DNA of 20,747 nucleotides from a virus (lineage: Duplodnaviria > Heunggongvirae > Uroviricota > Caudoviricetes). The position numbers and the translations under genes were made by a program. Each line of letters starts with the position of its first letter. The stretch's first letter is position 1. The notes beneath the pieces are model-generated. The model did no database searches. It had not been told where the DNA came from and worked only from the letters and a program-made list of their open reading frames with translations. Where the stretch lies: positions 1 through 20,747 of the IMG/VR virus record IMGVR_UViG_2579778622_000016, one strand, 5' to 3'. Of the stretch, positions 2,071-20,747 are shown in pieces.

Positions 2071-3467
2071 GCTATACCTCTCTTTTTCATGGCATCGAGC
2101 AGGATGTCCTGCACTGTTCGTTTTGAGTTGCGCCGCTCCATCACCATTTCATCCATAGTGTCGGCAGCAATAATGTGGTGAATAAATACCGGACGATTGT
2201 GTCCGGCCTGTATCTGCCTGGTGGGGCCGATACGTTCAATAATTTGCTGATATTGCTCCAGGTCCCACCAGTGTGAGAAAAATACCAGTATATTTCCGCC
2301 GTCCTGCATGTTCAGGCCGTGGCCCGCGCTGGCTGGGTGTGCAAAGAGAACAGGAATCTTTCCGGAATTCCAGTCGCGCAGTGTCTTTGGATCCTGGTCG
2401 AGGTGACGACCGCGAGGGAATGCTTTAAGCAAGCGTTCAAGATCGTGTTTCCAGTGATAAGCAACCAGCACAGGTGCGCCAGCTGCTTCGGTCAGTATGC
2501 TGTCCAGCGCCTGCAGTTTGGTGTCATGCAGTTCTGACCAACTTCCGGTGTCGTCTGTGTATACTGCGCCACTGGCGATTTGCAGACACTTCAGTGTCTT
2601 TGCCGCGGCGTTTGGTGCTTCGATGCCTTCGCCATTCAGCTCGAGGAACATTTCCTTTTCCATTTCACGATACTGCTGACGGGCCTTCGGCGGCATATCC
2701 ACGCGGATTACGTTATGGATGGGGTCTTTGATATCGAACCAGTCGGCCGCATCCAGCGAGAGGGTTACATCGGCTAACGCTCGCTGTATTTCACCCTGTG
2801 AGTGAGCAAAAGGCTCCAGTTTAGTCCAGCTCTGTCCCGGAAACTGTATCGAGTTGAACCAGCGTGAGGTAAACGCGCCATAAGTGCGCCCGAGACGTTG
2901 CCCTTGGTCCACAAACCACGATTGTCCCCACAAATCTACCAGGCCGTTCGGTGCTGGCGTACCGGTGAGATTTATCCAGCGCCGGACATACTTATGCGCC
3001 ACTTTGCCCAGCGCCGCCGCGCGCTTACCACCACCTCGCAGCCGGAAGGATTTTAGCCGGGTGCTTTCATCTGGAATGACAGTACCGAACGGCCATCGTT
3101 CTCCCAATTCCTCAACCAGCCAGACAAGGTTATCGTAGTTGATGGTGAACACGCTCGCGTTGCTGTTCGCCAGCGCTGTAGAGCGCGCTTTGGCATTACC
3201 AACAATCGGCTGCACCTCGATATTGCGCAAATGCCCCCACTTCACTGCTTCATCCGGCCATGTGCTGGCAGCCACGCGCAGCGGCGCGAGGACCAGTACG
3301 GGGCGTGTTTCTGCCCCTGCCATAAAAAGATCTTCCAGCGCAGTGAGCGTTGCCACGGTTTTACCCATTCCCATACCTGCCCAGATGTTGCAGCGCATAA
3401 TGTCGACTTGATGATTGATGATGAGATCTTGGTAGGGACGGGGGCTGAATAGTTTAGAAGGGGTCAT
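2067..3467 (-). CDS. SNF2-family (DEAD/DEAH-box) helicase
   Basis: 466-aa ORF with Walker A GMGKT and DExx-type IPDESTRL; C-terminal helicase domain. Typical partner of VRR-NUC and family-A polymerase in phage replication modules. Confidence 0.85.
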   Translation of the reverse strand: MTPSKLFSPRPYQDLIINHQVDIMRCNIWAGMGMGKTVATLTALEDLFMAGAETRPVLVLAPLRVAASTWPDEAVKWGHLRNIEVQPIVGNAKARSTALANSNASVFTINYDNLVWLVEELGERWPFGTVIPDESTRLKSFRLRGGGKRAAALGKVAHKYVRRWINLTGTPAPNGLVDLWGQSWFVDQGQRLGRTYGAFTSRWFNSIQFPGQSWTKLEPFAHSQGEIQRALADVTLSLDAADWFDIKDPIHNVIRVDMPPKARQQYREMEKEMFLELNGEGIEAPNAAAKTLKCLQIASGAVYTDDTGSWSELHDTKLQALDSILTEAAGAPVLVAYHWKHDLERLLKAFPRGRHLDQDPKTLRDWNSGKIPVLFAHPASAGHGLNMQDGGNILVFFSHWWDLEQYQQIIERIGPTRQIQAGHNRPVFIHHIIAADTMDEMVMERRNSKRTVQDILLDAMKKRGIA

Positions 3468-3751
3468 TAAGCCCCCTCTAGGTCAACATTGGGAAGCTTA
3501 TAGTCTGGTATGGTTTCATCCAATACCCTGGCGATAAAGTCATCTTTAGGGTAATAAATTACCGCTCCGAATTCTTCGCTTAAATAGTGACTTGAAGTAG
3601 CTGCGTTAGTATCGTTATCCCACGTTACAGGAACCAGACCTGTATGATCTTGTTTCCACGCAATAATAGGGTGGACCGTGTAAAGTGAACCATCATCGTT
3701 ATAAAGCACAACCCACCAACCGGGTTGAGCCGGCATATAATTATCCATCAC
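3467..3751 (-). CDS. Hypothetical phage protein (94 aa)
   Basis: ORF with GTG (3751) / ATG (3748) start behind SD GGAGGGG; stop overlaps the helicase start (TAATG). No recognisable motif. Confidence 0.5.
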   Translation of the reverse strand: MMDNYMPAQPGWWVVLYNDDGSLYTVHPIIAWKQDHTGLVPVTWDNDTNAATSSHYLSEEFGAVIYYPKDDFIARVLDETIPDYKLPNVDLEGA

Positions 3752-3775
3752 AATATCCCCTCCAGATTTTAGCTA
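3748..3775. repeat. Copy 1 of a 28-bp direct repeat (TCACAATATCCCCTCCAGATTTT-N-GCTA) carrying an SD and GTG start
   Basis: 27 of 28 positions identical to 5366-5393 (the first 23 bp are perfect); in both copies the repeat supplies the RBS and GTG of a minus-strand gene. Confidence 0.7.
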
Positions 3776-3806
3776 GCAGGGCGCGGGGTAATCCCGCGCA
3801 ATAATG

Positions 3807-4556
3807 TCAGATTAGATCGGTGTAGTAGGTGAAGTTGCCAAACTGCGGATGTGTCCAGCGCTTGCGGTTACCTTTCGGTGGTGTCGATTCGTTTAACAGC
3901 TTTTGAGCTGCTTGTTCGATCTCCGGAAGGTTAACGAGCAATCCCCGAACGCCGGTGTCTGAACGTACTGGTATCCTGGCGAAGCCGATCAATTTCCGGC
4001 ATGTTGAATCAGATAAACCTGTTTTCCATGCTGCTTTGCTGACGGGGACATATTCACCTTCAACATTAGATAAATTCGCTGGTGCGGCTGGTTGAAAATA
4101 GCCAGTTGCATCAAGACAGGCTTTCATTGTTGCTTCTGCTACGACGCGAGCAAGCTGGACGATGCCGTCGTTGATCTGAATTTTGGGTGTGGAAGGATGG
4201 GTAACAAGCGGTTGTACTTTACCTGTTTCCAGCTCACGCCAGCGCTTAACTACTTTATACCGGTCGTGGGCGCTATAACCAGTTACAAGCGTTGTGGAAA
4301 GGTCCTGATCGAGTAGTATTTCATCAATGACTTCGCGACCATTATAGACCTTCCTTTTGACTAAAAAGTCTTTATTTTCATGATGGTACATTTCTGTACT
4401 ATGAAAACCTAACTGCTCAAGAAGTGCTTTAATATCGCGCACGACTATTTTATGTTCTTTGCCGGTAAGTTCTGCAATCTCGCGACTGCTCATCATCGGT
4501 TGCTTACCAGTGCCTGCTAGTGTTAAAGTTGTTTCGAACATTGAAGTATTCTCCAT
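3807..4556 (-). CDS. Rha-family phage regulatory protein (antirepressor-like)
   Basis: N-terminal MSSREIAELTGKEHKIVVRDIKALLEQLG matches the Rha (Phage_pRha) signature as I remember it. The first ATG (4556) lacks an SD; the ATG at 4541 (GGAG upstream) may be the true start. Confidence 0.7.
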   Translation of the reverse strand: MENTSMFETTLTLAGTGKQPMMSSREIAELTGKEHKIVVRDIKALLEQLGFHSTEMYHHENKDFLVKRKVYNGREVIDEILLDQDLSTTLVTGYSAHDRYKVVKRWRELETGKVQPLVTHPSTPKIQINDGIVQLARVVAEATMKACLDATGYFQPAAPANLSNVEGEYVPVSKAAWKTGLSDSTCRKLIGFARIPVRSDTGVRGLLVNLPEIEQAAQKLLNESTPPKGNRKRWTHPQFGNFTYYTDLI

Positions 4557-4601
4557 TTAATAAAAGATGCGCTGGTAGCTGCAACTATCAGCGCGTTTTA
4601 T

Positions 4602-4778
4602 TTATTCATCCCACGGCTTGTTTGCAGCTTCCCTTGCAGCCTGCTGCGCAAAATAAATCAATTCAAAAGCTAACTGCTCTCCTTTCTCCAGCGAACTGAG
4701 AAGCCTTGCTGTTTCCAGCATGTCCGCGATATACCCGAAAATATCTGCCTGATGTAACTGCGTGATCTGAATAGCCAT
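4602..4778 (-). CDS. Small hypothetical protein (58 aa), not in the supplied ORF track
   Basis: Translated by hand: MAIQITQLHQADIFGYIADMLETARLLSSLEKGEQLAFELIYFAQQAAREAANKPWDE. SD GAGG about 9 nt upstream; first gene leftward of the divergent promoter/operator region. Confidence 0.35.
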   Translation of the reverse strand: MAIQITQLHQADIFGYIADMLETARLLSSLEKGEQLAFELIYFAQQAAREAANKPWDE

Positions 4779-4798
4779 AGCGTTAACCTCGTTTAGTT

Positions 4799-4877
4799 CT
4801 CATTGTGAGGACTAGATTTATTAGTACTCACAATGAGGCTTGAAGTCAACATGTTTGTGAGGCATGTTGTTCTCACA
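4799..4877. promoter_or_regulatory. Divergent promoter region with two palindromic operators (TGTGAG / CTCACA half-sites)
   Basis: Perfect 11-bp inverted repeat CTCATTGTGAG (4799-4809) / CTCACAATGAG (4827-4837), and a second pair TGTGAG (4856-4861) / CTCACA (4872-4877), just upstream of the RHH gene start at 4895. Confidence 0.5.
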
Positions 4878-4894
4878 CTTTCAAGGGATCATAT

Positions 4895-5224
4895 ATGAGC
4901 AAAAGAGACGACCCGCAGTTGAGGGTACGCATACCAGAATTACTAAAAGAGGCTTTGGAGAAGAAAGCACGAGCTAATAAGAGAACACTGACCTCTGAGA
5001 TCGTTAGCAGGTTGGAATCTACTATTCTTCAGGACAAATTACTTCATACATCTAGGGGGTTTGAGGAAGCTGCTGATGAGATTCTCATACTCAGGGATCT
5101 TCTCGAGAAACTTAAGACAACGTACCATCGAGAGCATCAGGCCGAATGGGTTTATGAAAACAAATACGAGCTTATTGAGGCGATGGAAAAACTTAAGAAG
5201 TTGCTAAATCCTGAGAATGAATAG
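4895..5224 (+). CDS. Arc/Mnt-type ribbon-helix-helix repressor with C-terminal coiled-coil (Mnt-like)
   Basis: 109 aa; N-terminal RVRIPELLKEALEKKARANKRTLTSEIVSRLE is a classic Arc-like RHH pattern; C-terminal heptad-like region. SD AAGGGA upstream. Confidence 0.7.
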   Translation: MSKRDDPQLRVRIPELLKEALEKKARANKRTLTSEIVSRLESTILQDKLLHTSRGFEEAADEILILRDLLEKLKTTYHREHQAEWVYENKYELIEAMEKLKKLLNPENE

Positions 5225-5369
5225 TGGATTCATCCTCTAAACTTTTACGTAACCGCCGGGTGATTTCGGCGGTTAGTGTTCTGTCGTTTTCTCTGGAAAT
5301 TTTTTCCAGTGCGTCTTTCAAGTCTTGCGGGATGCGTACCCGCAATTGTGGGTCATCACGTTTACTCAC
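5193..5369 (-). CDS. Arc-like ribbon-helix-helix protein (58 aa), paralogue of the 4895..5224 product
   Basis: Hand translation from GTG: (M)SKRDDPQLRVRIPQDLKDALEKISRENDRTLTAEITRRLRKSLEDESTIHSQDLATS; first 14 residues identical to the plus-strand RHH. SD GGAGGGG; GTG overlaps the VRR-NUC stop (GTGA). Not in the ORF track (under 60 aa). Confidence 0.55.
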   Translation of the reverse strand: MSKRDDPQLRVRIPQDLKDALEKISRENDRTLTAEITRRLRKSLEDESTIHSQDLATS

Positions 5370-15093: not shown

Positions 15094-17238
15094 ATGGCCC
15101 AGATCAATCTCTCATACGGCCGGGAACTGGTAGACAACCTTCCTGTGCCCTGTACTGATGCCGATTTTAACCGGACATTTAAGCGTGTTAAAAAGTGGGC
15201 TCGTGCTATCGGCGCAACCAAACAGGATACAAAAAGCCAGCTTAACGCCAAAAAAGCGCGTCTGCCCTACATCTGGCACGCAATGAAGGACGTCACCAAA
15301 GGTCGTAACGCTGCTAATGCGGGCAACCGTGATGTGCTCTTCATGGATATGGACGGCTGTAACGCGCCTGCATGGGGCGCTTTACGCGATGCGCTGGCCT
15401 GTTTCTCATGTTTCACCTATTCAACGCCAAGTCATCTGCACCCCACTGCAAACGGGGAACATCGCTGGCGTATCTGCCTGGAGCTGAGTCGCCAGGTCAC
15501 GCCCGAAGAGTACAAGCGTCTTGGCCTTGCGGTTGAAAACTGGCTGATGGATTGTATCAGCCTGCTGGACGATTACACCGTCAAGTGGGACCACAGCGTT
15601 TACAACCCGGACCATATGGTTTTTGCCCCTGATGAAAAGGCCATCTTTGAACGTTTTACCGGGGAACCTGTTGACGTTGATATCCTGTTGGCCAGCGCAC
15701 CGGAAGTTACCATCCCTGAAAAAGCATCTTCCACAGACCGCGATGATTTGTCACGCGCTGTCGAACTGAACGGCATCAGTCAGGAAACTTTTGACGACCT
15801 GCGCGAAGTGATGTGGCATCCGGCTGTACTGGCGGACGCTGAGCCGGGTTGCGGTAAATACCATAGCTGGGCGGCGATGGGAAATCGTCTGGCATGGTTT
15901 AAGGGAACCGACTGGGAAGACGCAGCCCGTCAGCTTTGGGTCGACTGGTCGATAGCGGGTGGTGGCGATGGCATCAGCGCTGAACATAAATGGGACAGTA
16001 ACCAGCTTACCGCCGAACGAACCGGTTACCAGGCCATTTTCGCCCATGCGCAGAAAGCAGGGGTCGCTAACCCCGCGACCGACCGTATGCGCGGTTTTGT
16101 CGCCGGTGCGAATGACTTCGACGAGTTGCCACCGGAAAAACCGGAGCTGCCAAAGTCCAGACCGCACACAGGCGGCTACGGTAAGCCGGGAAAGTTCATC
16201 ATTGAAGGGATGGTGCCGCACGGGGTGACCATGCTCTATGGAGCTTCGTCATCGTTCAAATCCTATGGCGTTATCTCCATGCTCTGCCGTGTGGCGACGA
16301 AAACTCATCGCTGGGGCGGGCGTAACCTCAAAGGTGGCGCTGTTCTGTATGTTGCCGCTGAGGGTGGCAGCTCCGTTATGCCGCGTGTCGGCGCATGGGC
16401 GGATAAGTACAATGACGGTAAGCCACTGGATTTGTTCTACACCCTGCCACTGGCGGTTGATCTCTCTGTCCCCGCAAACGTCACAAAGATGGTAAACGAG
16501 ATTAAGCGCATAGCGTACCACACCGGCGAACCTGTCCGGCTTGTGGCCGTCGACACGCTGTCGCAGTCCATGATGCAGGGCGAGGAAAACAGCGCCAGTG
16601 ATGTGGCAAAATTCATGGCGGGCGCAACCAGGGTGTTCACCGAAACGGGCGCAGCGGTGATTATCGTTCACCACAGCGGCAAAGACAGCAGTAAGGGGAT
16701 GCGTGGCTCTTCTGCTGCCTTTGCTAACGCCGATGCGGTCATTCGCGTGGAACGCATCGGCGACGCGGTGAACCTGATTAACGAGAAACAGCGTACCGGT
16801 CCGGTACAGCCGACCCGCGGTTACATGGTACCGACAGTGCAGCTTCCTGACGACGTTATCGCGGCTAACGAAACGTACGATGATGAGTATACCAGCACTG
16901 AAGGGGAAGTATATGACCCTGTAAGGCTTACCACCGAGCGCGTGTTTGAAGATGCACCAATGGCGGAGATCACCCCACTGCTGGTGGATAAGGGCGACGG
17001 GAATACCAAAGGCAGCAGCGATGAATCCTGGGTATGGGAAAAGCTGGAGGCCTCCGGCGGCAGCATCAACCGTTCTGCGCTTCGCGAGTTATGGAAGGAT
17101 GAAACCGATAAAAGTACCGGTCAGTTACGTGCGGTTCTGGGGCGCATGAAAGAGAAGTATTACATCGTTGAGCGCGACGGCGTAATCAGGGATCCGCTAT
17201 GCAATGGCGTACCACCTGGAGGGGATGAAATTGCTTAA
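15094..17238 (+). CDS. Replication protein: N-terminal AEP primase-polymerase domain fused to a RecA-fold (AAA_25/RepA-like) helicase/ATPase
   Basis: 714 aa; AEP motifs VLFMDMDG (DxD) and TPSHLHP (SxH); C-terminal P-loop region GASSSFKS, Walker-B-like LVAVDTL and VIIVHHSGKD. Confidence 0.75.
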   Translation: MAQINLSYGRELVDNLPVPCTDADFNRTFKRVKKWARAIGATKQDTKSQLNAKKARLPYIWHAMKDVTKGRNAANAGNRDVLFMDMDGCNAPAWGALRDALACFSCFTYSTPSHLHPTANGEHRWRICLELSRQVTPEEYKRLGLAVENWLMDCISLLDDYTVKWDHSVYNPDHMVFAPDEKAIFERFTGEPVDVDILLASAPEVTIPEKASSTDRDDLSRAVELNGISQETFDDLREVMWHPAVLADAEPGCGKYHSWAAMGNRLAWFKGTDWEDAARQLWVDWSIAGGGDGISAEHKWDSNQLTAERTGYQAIFAHAQKAGVANPATDRMRGFVAGANDFDELPPEKPELPKSRPHTGGYGKPGKFIIEGMVPHGVTMLYGASSSFKSYGVISMLCRVATKTHRWGGRNLKGGAVLYVAAEGGSSVMPRVGAWADKYNDGKPLDLFYTLPLAVDLSVPANVTKMVNEIKRIAYHTGEPVRLVAVDTLSQSMMQGEENSASDVAKFMAGATRVFTETGAAVIIVHHSGKDSSKGMRGSSAAFANADAVIRVERIGDAVNLINEKQRTGPVQPTRGYMVPTVQLPDDVIAANETYDDEYTSTEGEVYDPVRLTTERVFEDAPMAEITPLLVDKGDGNTKGSSDESWVWEKLEASGGSINRSALRELWKDETDKSTGQLRAVLGRMKEKYYIVERDGVIRDPLCNGVPPGGDEIA

Positions 17239-17244
17239 TTTTAC

Positions 17245-17535
17245 CAATTTGCAGAAAGCTACAAATTTGCATAAAAATGCAAAAATAAAATATATGCAAT
17301 TTATTTGCATAAATAGTCAGCGCAACAAAAATTTTAAGCAGCAAGCGCAACACGATGCGCAACAGCGCAACAAAAAATGTTGCGCCGCTGATTTTAAAGG
17401 CTTTTTTAACCGCAACAAGCGCAACACGACGGCTAGCGTAGTGGCGCAACACAATACCCCTCTCCCCCCTTTAGGGGGGAGGGGTTTGTTGCGCCCGAGC
17501 CGTTGCGGTTTTTATTCATTTAAATGCATATGCAA
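17245..17535. repeat. Iteron-rich putative replication origin
   Basis: GCGCAACA at 17320, 17345, 17357, 17365, 17419, 17444 and inverted TGTTGCGC at 17378, 17487 (variants at 17410, 17501); AT-rich TTTGCAT / ATGCAAA repeats at 17246-17315; central GC hairpin 17457-17484. Confidence 0.55.
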
Positions 17536-17561
17536 TGCTGGTGAATGATAAGGGGGTGCAG

Positions 17562-18260
17562 ATGCTGACAGCAATCAACAACGAAAAAATTGTCATCGCA
17601 AGGGACGCGCAGAAACCGGGAATTTTCGCCTGCCCGGAATGTGGTGAAGTTGTCACCCTGCGGAAAGGTTCGGTGAAAGTTCACCATTTCGCCCATCGCA
17701 GCACCACATCCTGCGGTTACGGGAAAGGCGAATCTGAGTTGCACATGGATTTGAAAATGCAGGTCTATGACGCGTTGAACGCGCATCGTGAGGTGGAATA
17801 TGTTGCGATGGAGGTCGCAGTCGGTGATGTTCGTCCCGATGTGCTGGCGATTATTCGGGGTCAGAAGGTTGCTTTTGAGATTCAGGTTAGTTCGCTGAGT
17901 ATTGAAGACCTCTATCGCCGCACGGTTGCGTACGCAGCTCAGGACATTGCGATGATCTGGATCCTGCACTGGCCTGAAGGTACTGCACTGGACCGGCTTT
18001 ATCACCCTGCATCATGGGAGCGATGGTTACATACTTGCGGAATGGCAACTCTGTACTTCTGGGCGGGCGATGGCTGGGTCAGGCCAGTGCGTCTGGGAAA
18101 CCGACAACATGGATTACAAAGAGCACCTCGTGCCCATCTGGTTGATGATTTCGAACCAAAGCGAACAGGCGGGTGGATTAAAGGTGATTTTCTGATACCT
18201 GCTCGCTTTATCTGGAATCGTGTGCGACGGCAAAAACGTAGAGGTCAGAGCTATGCGTAA
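17562..18260 (+). CDS. CoiA-like family protein (putative nuclease)
   Basis: FACPECGEVVTLRKGSVKVHHFAHRSTTSC...GESELH...RPDV matches the CoiA N-terminal pattern as I recall it. SD AAGGGGG before the ATG at 17562. Confidence 0.75.
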   Translation: MLTAINNEKIVIARDAQKPGIFACPECGEVVTLRKGSVKVHHFAHRSTTSCGYGKGESELHMDLKMQVYDALNAHREVEYVAMEVAVGDVRPDVLAIIRGQKVAFEIQVSSLSIEDLYRRTVAYAAQDIAMIWILHWPEGTALDRLYHPASWERWLHTCGMATLYFWAGDGWVRPVRLGNRQHGLQRAPRAHLVDDFEPKRTGGWIKGDFLIPARFIWNRVRRQKRRGQSYA

Positions 18261-18687: not shown

Positions 18688-18895
18688 GTTGAATTTCTGA
18701 CCTCAACGAAGAGCTCCAAATTATTGGGGGTTTTTTGTACGCACAACAGGTAATAGTATTGAACCCGCAGACCTCGCGGAACTGGTGAAAGGTGCCGCGC
18801 AGTGCTCTTATCGTTGTGGTGAAGCTCAATGGCGAGCTAGCAGATAGGCGACAGTGAAAATACTAGTCATGTATCTGACCGCCGCGCGTACTGCA

Positions 18896-18944
18896 ATCGG
18901 CAGCGCACCGATGGAAGCCGGTTCGATTCCGGCCGCCACAACCC
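18896..18944 (+). other. tRNA-like fragment (anticodon-arm-like hairpin, canonical T-arm, 7-nt acceptor 3' strand); not a complete canonical tRNA
   Basis: ATCGG-CAGCGCA-CCGAT hairpin (18896-18912), T-arm GCCGG-TTCGATT-CCGGC (18917-18933), then CGCCACA-A-CCC. No D-arm or acceptor 5' strand at the right distance. Confidence 0.3.
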
Positions 18945-19061
18945 AAACTGAGCCGTAGCCACTGGCTGTCCTGAACTCCTCAGTGATAGTTACGCTGCGG
19001 CCTTCTTTTTCCCCTTCCTAATACAAGAACTACGCAATCCGTTACTGGCGGAGGCGTTGCT

Positions 19062-19277
19062 ATGAAATCAATGGACAAAATCTCAACTGGCATTGCCTAC
19101 GGAACATCCGCTGGTAGTGCGGGATACTGGTTTTTACAGTGGTTGGATCAGGTCAGTCCGTCACAGTGGGCTGCTATTGGTGTGCTGGGGAGTCTGGCAC
19201 TGGGCTTTCTGACTTATCTGACGAATCTGTACTTCAAGATAAAAGAGGACCGTCGCAAGGCGGCGCGGGGAGAGTAA
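19062..19277 (+). CDS. S21-type pinholin (class II holin) with dual-start motif
   Basis: 71 aa, [30 protein letters not shown]...: near-identical to my memory of phage 21 S; two in-frame starts (MKSM / MDKI); SD GGAGG upstream; two TM segments. Confidence 0.85.
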
Positions 19278-19410
19278 TTCAATGGAACATAATAATGAAA
19301 AATCCAGAGAGCACTCTGGAAACAGCAAACATTATTCCATTGCTCATTCATTCGGCGGCTTTCGTGATGTAGTCGGACAGGGTGCTGAGAGAGAACAGGA
19401 GAGTAATACA

Positions 19411-20217
19411 ATGACTCAAAACCATGAACTGGTTGTTAAAGGAACCCGAAATTTTGAGAATAAAATTGCGGTGATTTTAACCCTGCGTGACAAAAAGCGT
19501 TTTGCCTGTGAGATATTTGACTTACACATCAACCTTGAACGACAGGAAGGCGCCACTCTGGAGTTTTATGAGTCAGAGGCAATAAAACGGGCAAAGACAT
19601 TGTTCCGGGATGTTGCTGCAGGGTTATGTGAAGGGGACGAGCTGTCGCCGGAAAAGCGCCCCATAATTTTACAGGCGCACAATGTGTGGATAACCTACAA
19701 AGGAAAGCTACCGGGAAGAATTACTGGTTCTCTGAAGATGCCGCCGTCAACACTGCGGTCAGAAAAAGAGGCGTCTTGTCTGCAGTCTGAGTACTCCATT
19801 ACGGTTAAAAGTGCCGGAGAGGAAGGAAATAAACGTTATTTTATTGCGTCTGCACCTGATAAAGATCAGGAATGGGAGTGTAACCGGCCATCCTTTGTTG
19901 TATACGGAGATGGCGGGAAAATAACCATCTCAGAAAATGGGAAATTAACACCGCCATCGCACCAGCATAGTGAGGCGCTCATTGAATTTGCCATTGATTA
20001 CCTGAAGAACAATAAAAAGCAGGGGCTGATGAAGCGCATTGGTCGTTGCATGGGATATCTGCAGGTAGCAGCTGAGATTGAAATGATGGCCAGTGGTGCT
20101 GACAATGATGCAGTTGTGCTGGAGGCTCTTCTGCGTGATTTTGATAATACGCCCTTTAAGAAAGCACCTGTTGACTGGATGCAGCCGGGGATGACTTATC
20201 TGAAAGGGCGTATATAA
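19411..20217 (+). CDS. Hypothetical protein (268 aa from ATG 19411; alternative start 19282 gives 311 aa)
   Basis: Occupies the slot where an endolysin is expected but has no TM/SAR segment or lysozyme motifs. The same SD-ATG 17-mer GGAGAGTAAT(A/T)CAATG precedes both candidate starts. Confidence 0.5.
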   Translation: MTQNHELVVKGTRNFENKIAVILTLRDKKRFACEIFDLHINLERQEGATLEFYESEAIKRAKTLFRDVAAGLCEGDELSPEKRPIILQAHNVWITYKGKLPGRITGSLKMPPSTLRSEKEASCLQSEYSITVKSAGEEGNKRYFIASAPDKDQEWECNRPSFVVYGDGGKITISENGKLTPPSHQHSEALIEFAIDYLKNNKKQGLMKRIGRCMGYLQVAAEIEMMASGADNDAVVLEALLRDFDNTPFKKAPVDWMQPGMTYLKGRI

Positions 20218-20226
20218 GGTGGCTCG

Positions 20227-20541
20227 TTATCTGTTGCTGGATAATCGACTGAAGATGCGTTCTTTTTGTGTTTTTGCGTAATGATTGTCCCACTCACAAT
20301 CAAGGTAGCTTAATTCTTCATTCAACCAGTTATTTATATTGGTCTTAATACGCATAAGCATGGGCTGTGTTAATGCTCTGGCGATAATGCCGAGAGTCAC
20401 AGGTGTGAGATGTCCATACGGCTCAACCTGAATGGATTTTACTGCATCGTGTTCTTGTGGGAGGAGTAAGAGGCACTCTGATTTTACCCGCTCATTTATG
20501 GCTTGCAGGCATAAATCATAATTATGTTGATCGTTATGCAT
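20227..20541 (-). CDS. Hypothetical protein (104 aa), convergent with the 19411..20217 gene
   Basis: SD GAGGA 6 nt upstream of the ATG at 20541; stops of the two genes are 10 bp apart. No family recognised. Confidence 0.5.
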   Translation of the reverse strand: MHNDQHNYDLCLQAINERVKSECLLLLPQEHDAVKSIQVEPYGHLTPVTLGIIARALTQPMLMRIKTNINNWLNEELSYLDCEWDNHYAKTQKERIFSRLSSNR

Positions 20542-20669
20542 GGTTAATCCTCTACTGAAATTGTCAGATATATTTCAGCCATCAGGAAAAACGCCAGTGT
20601 CCTACCGCTGGCGGGCTGAAGATTTAACATATCCAGGGATTCGGAACCGATAAATCCTGATAAATATCC

Positions 20670-20747
20670 ATGAACACCAAAATCAAATATGGCCTGTCGG
20701 CTGCCGTTCTGGCACTGATTGCCGTCGGTGCGCCTGCGCCTGATATT
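20670..20747 (+). CDS. 5' end of a gene for a secreted or membrane-anchored protein (possibly a SAR-type endolysin); truncated by the window edge
   Basis: MNTKIKYGLSAAVLALIAVGAPAPDI: basic N-terminus then a Gly/Ala-rich weakly hydrophobic stretch. Only 26 codons visible; weak RBS. Confidence 0.3.
   Translation, partial: MNTKIKYGLSAAVLALIAVGAPAPDI

Follow-up and report, generated by a model that had tools for sequence, protein, structure and literature searches.

A recurrent mosaic module of a YdfR-family gene and a convergent 104-aa gene within the S21-type lysis cassette of Escherichia coli lambdoid prophages

Our analysis of a 20,747-nt viral sequence (the window, meaning this whole stretch of DNA) indicated that the locus at its right end is a mosaic accessory region common to many E. 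coli lambdoid prophages, situated within an S21-type lysis cassette. Two genes lie here between the holin gene S and the endolysin gene R, one encoding a 268-aa YdfR-family protein and the other, convergent with it, a 104-aa protein (Table 1). These genes are a recurrent mosaic accessory module of S21-cassette phages and not a fresh insertion. Our best guess at their role is a late-expressed host-modulating protein together with a partner expressed in the lysogen. The best explanation we can offer, put forward tentatively, is that the YdfR-family protein acts late and is directed at RNase E or RNA, and that the 104-aa protein is its specific partner, made when late transcription is off. An earlier, sequence-only reading of this DNA had described the locus as a lysis cassette interrupted by cargo; apart from small coordinate errors its sequence observations stood, and its interpretation was only partly borne out.

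Table 1. Features of the lysis cassette and its accessory genes, with positions in the window
Feature	Position	Strand	Remarks
Holin gene S	19062..19277	+	S21-type class II (pinholin), 71 aa; PF04971 (phage 21 holin S) match
16-mer, copy 1 (GGAGAGTAATTCAATG)	19269..19284	+	Last holin codons, stop, GGAG Shine-Dalgarno, ATG
In-frame insert, 129 bp	19285..19413	+	Counted with copy 2 of the 16-mer (19398-19413)
Palindrome TCCAGAG-AGCA-CTCTGGA	19303..19320	-	7-bp stem, 4-nt loop; terminator scan
YdfR-family gene, 268 aa	19411..20217	+	Start as used by PGAP; PF07041, phrog_1085
N-domain (DUF1327), aa 1-75	19411-19635	+	
Linker, aa 76-150	19636-19860	+	Predicted disordered
Mosaic joint	19651..19710		60-nt identity profile
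Conserved C-terminal domain (C-domain), ~118 aa, aa 151-268	19861-20214	+	
Long hairpin	20147..20213		Within the 3'-terminal 70 nt of the C-domain gene, 13 nt past the minus-strand stop of the 104-aa gene
104-aa gene	20227..20541	-	WP_000551290.1, phrog_1853; convergent with the YdfR-family gene
Conserved element AAAAACGCCAGTG..CTGGCGGGCTGA	20587..20619		Upstream of the leftward gene; minus-strand hairpin, then T-run
Endolysin gene R, 5' end	20670..20747	+	Putative SAR type; ORF runs off the window end

The genes that the sequence-only reading had placed at both ends of the cassette were confirmed. The presumed pinholin matched PF04971 (Phage_holin_2_1) in Pfam with an E-value of 1.1e-35 (121.8 bits against a cut-off of 26), its start MKSMDK corresponds to the S21-type MKSM dual-start motif, and its translation contains two hydrophobic stretches; in strain LH50-c, PGAP annotates this holin as 'class II holin family protein'. 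At the right end, ATG 20670 opens MNTKIKYGLSAAVLALIAVGAPAPDI, and 26 codons of R lie within the window. The N-terminus YGLSAAVLALIAVGAPAP has, judged by composition only, the character of a weakly hydrophobic, Gly/Ala-rich SAR segment. Strain LH50-c, which is 100% identical to the window across the 148 nt they share, provided the rightward extension: its R encodes a 177-aa Phage_lysozyme homologue similar to the phage 21 SAR endolysin (3HDE, E 5.9e-16) and RrrD (4ZPU, 1e-15), the Glu-Asp-Thr triad is visible in the alignment as E35, D44 and T50, and an Rz-type gene lies downstream. The SAR-like gene start noted earlier is thus that of an endolysin gene.

The 268-aa protein is a soluble member of the YdfR family, the name also used by PGAP. 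It matched PF07041 (DUF1327) with an E-value of 1.7e-28 (99.1 bits against a cut-off of 25), and K-12 YdfR is 55% identical to its N-domain over aa 1-74 (E 6e-27). A longer ORF (19282-20217) reads as 311 aa, the internal start at 19411 giving 268 aa; as stated previously, the 268/311-aa protein has no transmembrane segment (best 19-residue Kyte-Doolittle mean 0.87), and no lysozyme family was matched in Pfam. Residues invariant in the C-domain include HxH, GRCMG, LQxAAEIE, PFK and YLKxR, and this domain corresponds to no Pfam family. The AlphaFold2 model of the whole protein, which contributed to the division into domains, was poor (pLDDT 52.7). Only 4 nt separate the TAA of the holin gene from the ATG of this gene, which has a GGAG Shine-Dalgarno, and a plus-strand terminator scan between S and R found none, so the gene is predicted to share the late transcript with the lysis proteins.

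The identity profile further shows that the gene joins, in frame, a rapidly diverging DUF1327 N-domain to a block that can be exchanged on its own, which consists of the linker, the C-terminal domain and the convergent 104-aa gene. On the 5' side of the mosaic joint, the gene is only 32-87% identical to Stx2 phage 86 and strain S1-IND-01-B, whereas on the 3' side it is 100% identical to both, and from ~19710 to R the sequence is 100% identical between unrelated strains. Moreover, the same N-domain allele is joined to a different 3' module in loci L007, L025 and L026.

The convergent gene on the opposite strand was confirmed where it had been reported, and 9 bp separate its stop codon from that of the 268-aa gene. 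Its product is confidently predicted to be a soluble five-helix bundle (AlphaFold2 pLDDT 88.3, pTM 0.81), and neither this protein nor the 268-aa protein has a transmembrane or SAR segment. The dN/dS values were 0.395 for the 104-aa gene and 0.21-0.51 for the 268-aa gene, with purifying selection at dS ~1; given dN/dS of 0.2-0.5 and a model pLDDT of 88 for the 104-aa protein, both genes are real. The 104-aa family is very narrow, with 21 matches among 1.84 billion representative proteins and none found in GTDB species-representative genomes; a Salmonella homologue (a 105-aa gene) is 45% identical. A scan of the minus strand upstream of the gene found no sigma-70 consensus promoter. The conserved element there is kept in variants carrying the 104-aa gene or a 95-aa gene and also precedes the Salmonella 105-aa gene, where the next gene is S and not R; its fold is weak (z = -1.6). 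Just downstream of the 104-aa gene is a strong hairpin without a U-run.

These features bear on whether the region is simply decaying filler without current function, which we regard as highly improbable. Its strong mosaicism, the many truncated family members and the copies flagged as partial by PGAP would fit such decay, but the flagged genes are intact 268-aa ORFs, meaning that several of these 'partial' labels are wrong. The purifying selection, the conservation reaching Salmonella and the confidently predicted fold of the 104-aa protein likewise speak against it.

Comparison of related phages supported the S-R interval as a variable accessory slot, and to this extent the proposal of cargo inserted at a hotspot stood, but an unusual or fresh interruption of the cassette did not. 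Of 5426 complete E. coli genomes, at least 2192 (~40%) carry a YdfR-family (DUF1327) gene after an S21-type holin, K-12 Qin (essQ-ydfR-rrrQ) being among the examples, and the two-gene layout had already been deposited. At least six different contents were found in the interval, which is the present-or-absent variation of a moron, i.e. an independently expressed insert in a phage operon (PMC2629481). The interval is empty in K-12 DLP12 (essD-rrrD) and holds ydfR alone in Qin, the C-domain gene alone in L020-L023, the C-domain gene with a separate 75-aa DUF1327 gene and an unrelated leftward 95-aa gene in L008-L011, and a truncated ydfR with an unrelated leftward 92-aa gene in L007, L025 and L026. 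The leftward 104-, 95- and 92-aa genes before R belong to phrog_1853, phrog_10490 and phrog_2411, respectively, and comparison rejected the idea that they are distant homologues. About 55 bp upstream of the R ATG are conserved in all variants carrying a leftward gene. Universal presence of the same two genes between S and R had been named as a finding that would speak against cargo; because the 104-aa gene occurs in only 64-94 of the 5426 genomes, the pair is not universal there.

In every context inspected (the window, L003, L012-L015, L016, L017 and L018-L019), the 104-aa gene is convergent with the C-domain gene and lies 9-19 bp from its end or overlaps it. The pair is upstream of the holin in L016, L017 and L018-L019, the placement seen in Salmonella, where S directly abuts R. 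Between E. coli and Salmonella, adjacency and convergence persist at 42-45% protein identity, and across ~10 distinct contexts the 104-aa gene was never seen without the C-domain gene. The C-domain gene and the 104-aa gene are a two-gene unit that E. coli and Salmonella have in common, and it has stayed intact even after moving to the other side of the holin. The 104-aa partner is dispensable, since the 3' end of the C-domain gene was found in 717 genomes and the 104-aa gene adjacent to it in 94, leaving ~87% without the partner (e.g., L008, L020 and L023). A DUF1327 assignment for the N-terminus of the 192-aa Salmonella protein was supported by neither hhalign nor Pfam.

The long hairpin at the 3' end of the C-domain gene folds with -28.8 kcal/mol on the minus strand (z = -6.3; plus strand z = -3.55), and carries compensatory changes at three pairs among 7 sequences. 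Relatives in E. coli and Salmonella still have it (z -3.0 to -4.9), with a single exception. That the hairpin is specific to 104-aa loci was rejected, as it is also kept in L008 and L020. This shared hairpin or other physical linkage alone could cause the adjacency, with no relationship between the proteins. Accordingly, the 104-aa gene might be an independent, lysogen-expressed moron like bor without any functional tie to the YdfR-family protein, their joint transfer resulting from nothing more than adjacency and common 3'-end sequence (20147-20213), so that recombination moves them as one block. The three unrelated leftward genes in one slot, the ~55-bp stretch before R as a shared recombination boundary, the identical block from ~19710 to R in unrelated strains and the frequent absence of the 104-aa gene are all in keeping with such a moron. 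However, we consider it somewhat unlikely, as the arrangement has survived divergence to 42-45% identity and even a move across the holin, the 104-aa gene is never found without its neighbour, and the hairpin is kept where the 104-aa gene is absent.

The sequence-only reading had also pointed to a 17-mer occurring twice, as if a holin-endolysin junction had been duplicated around cargo. The repeat itself exists but is a 16-mer, GGAGAGTAATWCAATG, at 19269-19284 and 19398-19413 (2 matches versus 0.00 expected from 100 shuffles), whose starts had been placed 3 nt too early. Relatives have a single copy, with S joined directly to ATGACTCAAAAC of ydfR, and the 16-mer is the S-stop/RBS/ATG junction of S and ydfR; the sequence at the R junction differs from it. 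The two copies bracket not the cargo but only a 129-bp insert, which adds 43 stop-free codons from ATG 19282 and so gives the 311-aa reading. This insert is rare and clonal: of 5426 E. coli genomes only 3 have it, a further four copies, all 100% identical, come from one IMG/VR contig and three metagenome contigs, and none was found in phage records. It resembles neither its flanks nor any other part of the window, and an Rfam search with it returned no RNA family; an origin as a diverged tandem duplication of the flanks was rejected, alignment scores being no better than those of shuffles. It may represent a recent single event that would provide an optional 43-residue N-terminal extension and a minus-strand terminator-like hairpin. 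The palindrome reported in the spacer after the holin is indeed present (core CCAGAGAGCACTCTGG at 19304-19319). On the minus strand it is followed by TTTTTCATTA (fold z = -3.4) and looks like an intrinsic terminator, and on the plus strand it caps a longer hairpin in which the first RBS and ATG are paired (z = -2.2 for the fold of 19262-19430).

Known families of defence, toxin-antitoxin or lysis proteins, and families with a solved structure, include no match to either protein. Pfam, NCBIfam and PADLOC returned nothing for either beyond DUF1327 on the N-domain, and PHROGs placed both in families without assigned function. Profile searches of solved structures with the 268-aa family, the 104-aa family and the C-domain gave nothing below E 0.1, Foldseek against BFVD gave nothing at E ≤0.001, and literature searches by protein accession and DUF1327 found nothing functional. 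The proposal that the prophage carries the two genes as cargo acting in toxin/immunity, abortive infection or another form of anti-phage defence found no support, and we think it quite improbable. It is true that the pair is a conserved two-gene unit without assigned function in a variable prophage slot, that the orientation of the 104-aa gene would permit expression in the lysogen, and that the 95-aa occupant of the slot weakly and partially matches the PADLOC candidate PDC-S51 (E 2.5e-5). Against this, PADLOC matched neither protein nor the distant homologues tested, and the obligate co-occurrence as one operon expected of a toxin-antitoxin pair was not seen: the genes are convergent and the C-domain gene stands alone in L020-L023. 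The putative antidote is absent from most C-domain genomes, leaving the supposed toxin without a partner in ~87% of its carriers (717 versus 94), and a putative toxin encoded in the late operon should be silent in the lysogen. In addition, overproduction of K-12 YdfR caused no growth defect (PMC13232886).

The position of the YdfR-family gene raises the alternative that its product, with or without the 104-aa protein, regulates lysis through the timing or activity of the pinholin or SAR endolysin. The gene lies inside the lysis cassette, tight on S, the K-12 ydfR stop overlaps the rrrQ start, and at every locus seen the C-domain gene adjoins the holin, before or after it. A Keio ydfR deletion also scored in an envelope-integrity mutant screen (PMC3879167), but the kanamycin cassette may have produced this phenotype through polarity, by driving rrrQ. 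Moreover, both proteins are soluble and lack a membrane or SAR segment, S abuts R with no such gene between them in DLP12 and Salmonella cassettes, and neither protein is similar to known antiholins or lysis regulators in Pfam, NCBIfam or PHROGs. The sequence-only reading had itself named membership of the 268-aa protein in a known endolysin or lysis regulator family as counting against cargo, and no such match was obtained. We consider a role in lysis control unlikely.

The explanation we favour, a late protein directed at RNase E or RNA, draws on K-12 YdfR, for which two-hybrid assays showed binding to RNase E 1-597 and which was purified together with Rne 1-598 in a preparation that contained DNase-resistant nucleic acid (PMC13232886). 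The interaction was carried by YdfR aa 1-72, and YdfR overproduction barely altered the transcriptome (PMC13232886). The region of the 268-aa protein that is 55% identical to K-12 YdfR covers these residues, the binding being reported for K-12 YdfR only. Like K-12 YdfR, the N-domain would attach to RNA and/or to host RNase E at its catalytic half, and the protein, once docked, may influence how host or phage RNA decays late in infection. The C-domain would be the conserved working part, its HxH motif suggesting metal binding. Read against the late operon, the 104-aa gene would be made when late transcription is off, i.e., in the lysogen or early infection, and would be silenced by antisense late transcription running through it. 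Its product would act specifically with the C-domain protein as its partner and, in the simplest case, would counter leaky expression of that protein. It is conceivable, though doubtful, that the two genes constitute an unrecognised two-gene system, in which a late effector is checked by a partner made only with late transcription off, head-on transcription across the 9-bp gap and the 3' hairpin form the switch, and the effector is here fused to an RNase E-docking domain.

If this inference holds, a lambdoid temperate phage would here be acting on the RNase E catalytic half, and a first functional handle would be gained on DUF1327/YdfR, a family that extends to the O104:H4 outbreak strain and Shiga-toxin phages. 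As a two-gene unit, the C-domain/104-aa pair is compact and has no known relatives; it adjoins the genes that time host lysis by Stx phages. The layout is already in databases, and for now the analysis serves mainly to correct the record: interruption of this cassette is nothing unusual, what the repeat marks is a 129-bp insert, and several PGAP 'partial' labels on this gene are wrong.

Among known systems, K-12 YdfR (Qin prophage, b1555, P76160) shares with the 268-aa protein the PF07041 family, the 55% identity over aa 1-74 and a gene position directly after an S21-type holin and before a 177-aa lysozyme. In contrast, it is a 103-aa protein comprising only the N-domain and a short helix, without linker or C-terminal domain, and its gene has neither a leftward neighbour nor the 129-bp insert. 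Closest in layout is Stx2-converting phage 86 (orf5/orf6, AB255436), with S, the 268-aa gene, the reverse 104-aa gene and R in the same order, as also in the O104:H4 and 55989 prophages. Phage 86 is 100% identical in nucleotides from ~nt 300 of the 268-aa gene through R, but its N-domain allele differs strongly (32-80% identity over the first 240 nt), it lacks the 129-bp insert and its backbone is that of an Stx2 phage. Phage 21 and DLP12 (S21-R21-Rz/Rz1; essD-rrrD-rzpD) have an S21-family pinholin like that of the window, and R21 and RrrD are homologous to its endolysin with a SAR-like N-terminus, the Rz-type gene downstream being that of LH50-c. In DLP12 S and R abut, whereas the window has 1.4 kb and two genes between them. 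Lambda bor/borD, a moron encoding a lipoprotein, is a small gene that points leftward, against the late operon, within or beside the lysis region; borD was seen in the DLP12 comparison. The 104-aa gene is likewise small, leftward, in the lysis region and present or absent between related phages, and its slot resembles a moron site in hosting three alternative unrelated genes, but the protein is cytoplasmic, is not a lipoprotein and is tied to one neighbouring gene. Finally, several phage proteins target RNase E, including T4 Srd, which binds its catalytic half, and T7 gp0.7 and phiKZ Dip, which also act on it (PMC4980113). These have no sequence or fold relation to the 268-aa protein, and they are expressed early whereas the 268-aa protein would be expressed late; the possible likeness is that, like Srd, a homologue of this phage-encoded protein binds RNase E at its catalytic N-terminal half.

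The features on which the sequence-only reading had been built, namely the holin, the convergent ORF pair, the endolysin-like start, the repeat and the palindrome, were all confirmed to be real. A prophage of E. coli LH50-c matches the region at 99.9% identity and is annotated in the order LexA-family repressor, AAA ATPase, CoiA-like protein, antiterminator Q, class II holin, 'YdfR family protein', leftward hypothetical protein, lysozyme, Rz-type lysis protein and terminase. Rightward, where that reading had called for a check, LH50-c therefore has a lysozyme, of which the last ORF of the window is the 5' part, and then an Rz-type lysis protein. A 714-aa AAA-family ATPase gene, a small hypothetical gene and the gene of the CoiA-like protein lie between the repressor region and Q (15094-18260, equal to 2145-5311 of the LH50-c locus, L001, in its RefSeq annotation), a position occupied in lambda by the O/P replication genes.

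Features of the lysis cassette and its surroundings (window positions)
Feature	Position	Strand	Description
Terminator-like hairpin	18714-18729		27 nt past Q antiterminator gene, then GTTTTTTGTA
Holin (S)	19062-19277		71 aa, starts MKSM; phage 21 holin family match, E 1.1e-35
Repeated 16-mer	19269-19284 and 19398-19413		
311-aa ORF	19282-20217	plus	268 aa if started at ATG 19411
Palindrome	19303-19320		
Long hairpin	20147-20213		within last 70 nt of C-terminal domain coding sequence; PFKK codons pair with YLKGR codons
104-aa ORF	20227-20541	minus	convergent; stop codons of the two ORFs 9 bp apart
Endolysin (R), 5' end	from 20670		full gene 177 aa; homologous to phage 21 SAR endolysin and RrrD; E35, D44 and T50 in place

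The terminator-like hairpin after the Q gene is plausibly the tR' terminator read through by Q-modified polymerase, and a terminator scan of the window found no plus-strand terminator between S and R, which therefore places the whole studied stretch in the late transcript. No tRNA was detected in the window by ARAGORN; a tRNA-like 3' fragment, GGTTCGATTCCGGCCGCCACA, at 18886-18944 matched the Rfam tmRNA model only in part and below threshold (E 1.5e-5). Between Q and S, the related prophage L005 carries one gene for tRNA-Ile and two for tRNA-Arg, and spacer 18690-19061 showed no similarity to that region.

In relatives, the holin gene ends in ...GGAGAGTAATTCAATGACTCAAAAC, that is, the stop codon, 4 nt and the ydfR ATG, with GGAG as the ribosome-binding site (RBS). 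This S-ydfR junction is present twice in the window, 129 bp apart, with the second copy leading into the usual start of ydfR. What the repeat encloses is therefore a 129-bp insert at this junction and not the two-gene cargo. Taking it for a holin-endolysin junction duplicated around cargo was a misreading, as it flanks this insert only and the junction with R differs in sequence. Copies of the insert were found in 3 of 5426 E. coli genomes, one IMG/VR contig and three metagenome contigs and in no phage record, and because all are 100% identical, they point to a single recent event. The insert resembles nothing else in the window and matched no Rfam family. It is in frame and stop-free, which has a chance of ~4% for a random insert (1/3 x (61/64)^43), and permits a 311-aa isoform whose 43-residue extension is hydrophilic. 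Its plus-strand fold pairs the first RBS and ATG (z = -2.2), and, read on the minus strand, the palindrome and TTTTTCATTA together look like an intrinsic terminator. A putative 25-codon mini-ORF with a hydrophobic tail, MKNPESTLETANIIPLLIHSAAFVM, can be read in another frame within the insert (19295-19372).

Further analysis of the 268-aa protein showed that the DUF1327 match spans aa 1-100 and that the protein is 55% identical to K-12 YdfR over aa 1-74. The AlphaFold2 model (mean pLDDT 52.7) divides it into three parts: three strands and a long helix make up the N-domain (aa 5-73, pLDDT about 56-80), aa 67-154 are disordered, and aa 155-245 (pLDDT 64-85) form a small C-terminal domain with three helices in addition to strands. 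The gene is mosaic: over its first ~240-300 nt it shares 32-87% identity with Stx2 phage 86 and strain S1-IND-01-B, and over the remainder 100%, and in other contigs the same N-domain allele and insert are joined to a truncated ORF and an unrelated leftward 92-aa gene. The N-domain is highly diverged (dS 0.9-1.3) and evolves under purifying selection (dN/dS 0.21-0.30).

The C-terminal domain is the conserved core of the protein, with HxH, GRCMG, LQxAAEIE, DF..PFK and PG..YLKxR among its invariant elements. It has no Pfam family and is restricted to prophages of E. coli, Shigella and Salmonella. The parts preceding it vary, from DUF1327 and a linker in the window to a coiled-coil segment in proteins of 185-217 aa and an unrelated N-terminus in a Salmonella protein of 192 aa. 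For the long hairpin in its coding sequence, the minus-strand fold (z = -6.3) is stronger than the plus-strand fold (z = -3.55). Most relatives in E. coli and Salmonella retain the hairpin, three of its pairs showing compensatory changes, and one relative has lost it; it is not confined to loci carrying the 104-aa gene. It may stabilise the 3' end, serve as a processing site or block leftward transcription.

The 104-aa ORF is a real gene, since its homologues are conserved in length (at identities from 98% down to 28%), its dN/dS is 0.395 and its five-helix model is confident (pLDDT 88.3, pTM 0.81); that the interval holds decaying filler is extremely unlikely. The family is tiny: a search of 1.84 billion representative proteins gave 21 matches, and one of species-representative genomes gave none. 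In P0142, a 6458-aa protein of the representative library, three stretches match positions 36-78 of the family, its conserved core (E 3e-11). In every context inspected, the gene is convergent to a gene with the C-terminal domain (C-domain gene), 9-19 bp from the end of the latter or overlapping it. In the E. coli cassettes of the window, L003 and L012-L015, the pair is flanked by S and R; in L016, L017 and Salmonella L018/L019 it is located upstream of the holin, and its proteins there share only 42-45% identity with those of the window. C-domain genes also occur without a 104-aa neighbour (L008-L011, L020-L022 and L023), and the 104-aa gene is found beside the C-domain 3' end in only 94 of 717 genomes. 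It is somewhat unlikely that the 104-aa gene is an independent moron kept with its neighbour by linkage alone.

The slot before R holds three unrelated leftward genes (104, 95 and 92 aa) in different phages, with ~55 bp 5' of the R start common to all three variants; a conserved hairpin element (~20587-20619) accompanies the 104-aa and 95-aa genes and also the Salmonella homologue. The 95-aa gene of Stx-type prophages (L008 4902-5189, minus strand) has a weak, partial match to the PADLOC candidate defence family PDC-S51 (E 2.5e-5). In Salmonella L018, two genes (1657-2969) lie directly upstream of the C-domain/105-aa pair, where Stx phages keep stx; one encodes 326 aa with pertussis-S1/Scabin-like ADP-ribosyltransferase matches (Pfam down to E 1.8e-5), and the other (106 aa) had no informative Pfam match.

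Profile libraries, solved structures and predicted viral structures gave no functional lead for either protein. K-12 YdfR is the only member with experimental information: its residues 1-72 came out of a two-hybrid screen, RNase E 1-597 is an interaction partner of the protein, Rne 1-598 co-purified with it, and its preparation contained DNase-resistant nucleic acid (PMC13232886). Phage proteins acting on RNase E, such as T4 Srd, T7 gp0.7 and phiKZ Dip, are a known theme (PMC4980113). Overproduction of K-12 YdfR barely altered the transcriptome and did not slow growth (PMC13232886), and a toxin/immunity or defence pair, as proposed by the sequence-only reading, is quite improbable. Deletion of ydfR scored in an envelope-integrity screen (PMC3879167 supplement), which we suspect to be a polar effect on rrrQ. 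Neither the 268/311-aa nor the 104-aa protein has a membrane segment or a lysozyme match, and a lysis regulator is an improbable reading. We tentatively favour a late host-modulating protein docking on RNase E/RNA, together with a C-domain-specific partner. The 268-aa protein would be soluble, its N-domain would attach to RNase E or RNA, and its conserved working part would be the C-domain; the 104-aa protein would be made while late transcription is off and silenced by read-through once it is on. Two leads merit testing, the conserved pairing of C-domain and 104-aa genes and the connection with RNase E.

The interruption of the cassette is not unusual, and the rarity of the layout had been overestimated. 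YdfR-family DNA was matched in 2192 of 5426 complete E. coli genomes, among which the 268-aa form is present at full length in 74 and the 104-aa gene in 64-94. RefSeq/PGAP labels the YdfR-family gene 'incomplete, missing C-terminus' at L002 3014-3820, L004 3333-3674 and L005 3255-4061; on translation of the region, the ORFs of L002 and L005 are intact at 268 aa each. The 'partial' labels on several such genes are annotation artefacts, and they hide the C-terminal domain. What the window shows, a lambdoid lysis cassette with accessory genes, is of an ordinary kind and already in databases. In K-12, essD abuts rrrD in DLP12, whereas Qin has the order essQ-ydfR-rrrQ, with ydfR between holin and lysozyme; the exact layout S / 268 aa / reverse 104 aa / R is found in O104:H4 and 55989 as well as in Stx2-converting phage 86, where the two genes were deposited as orf5/orf6.
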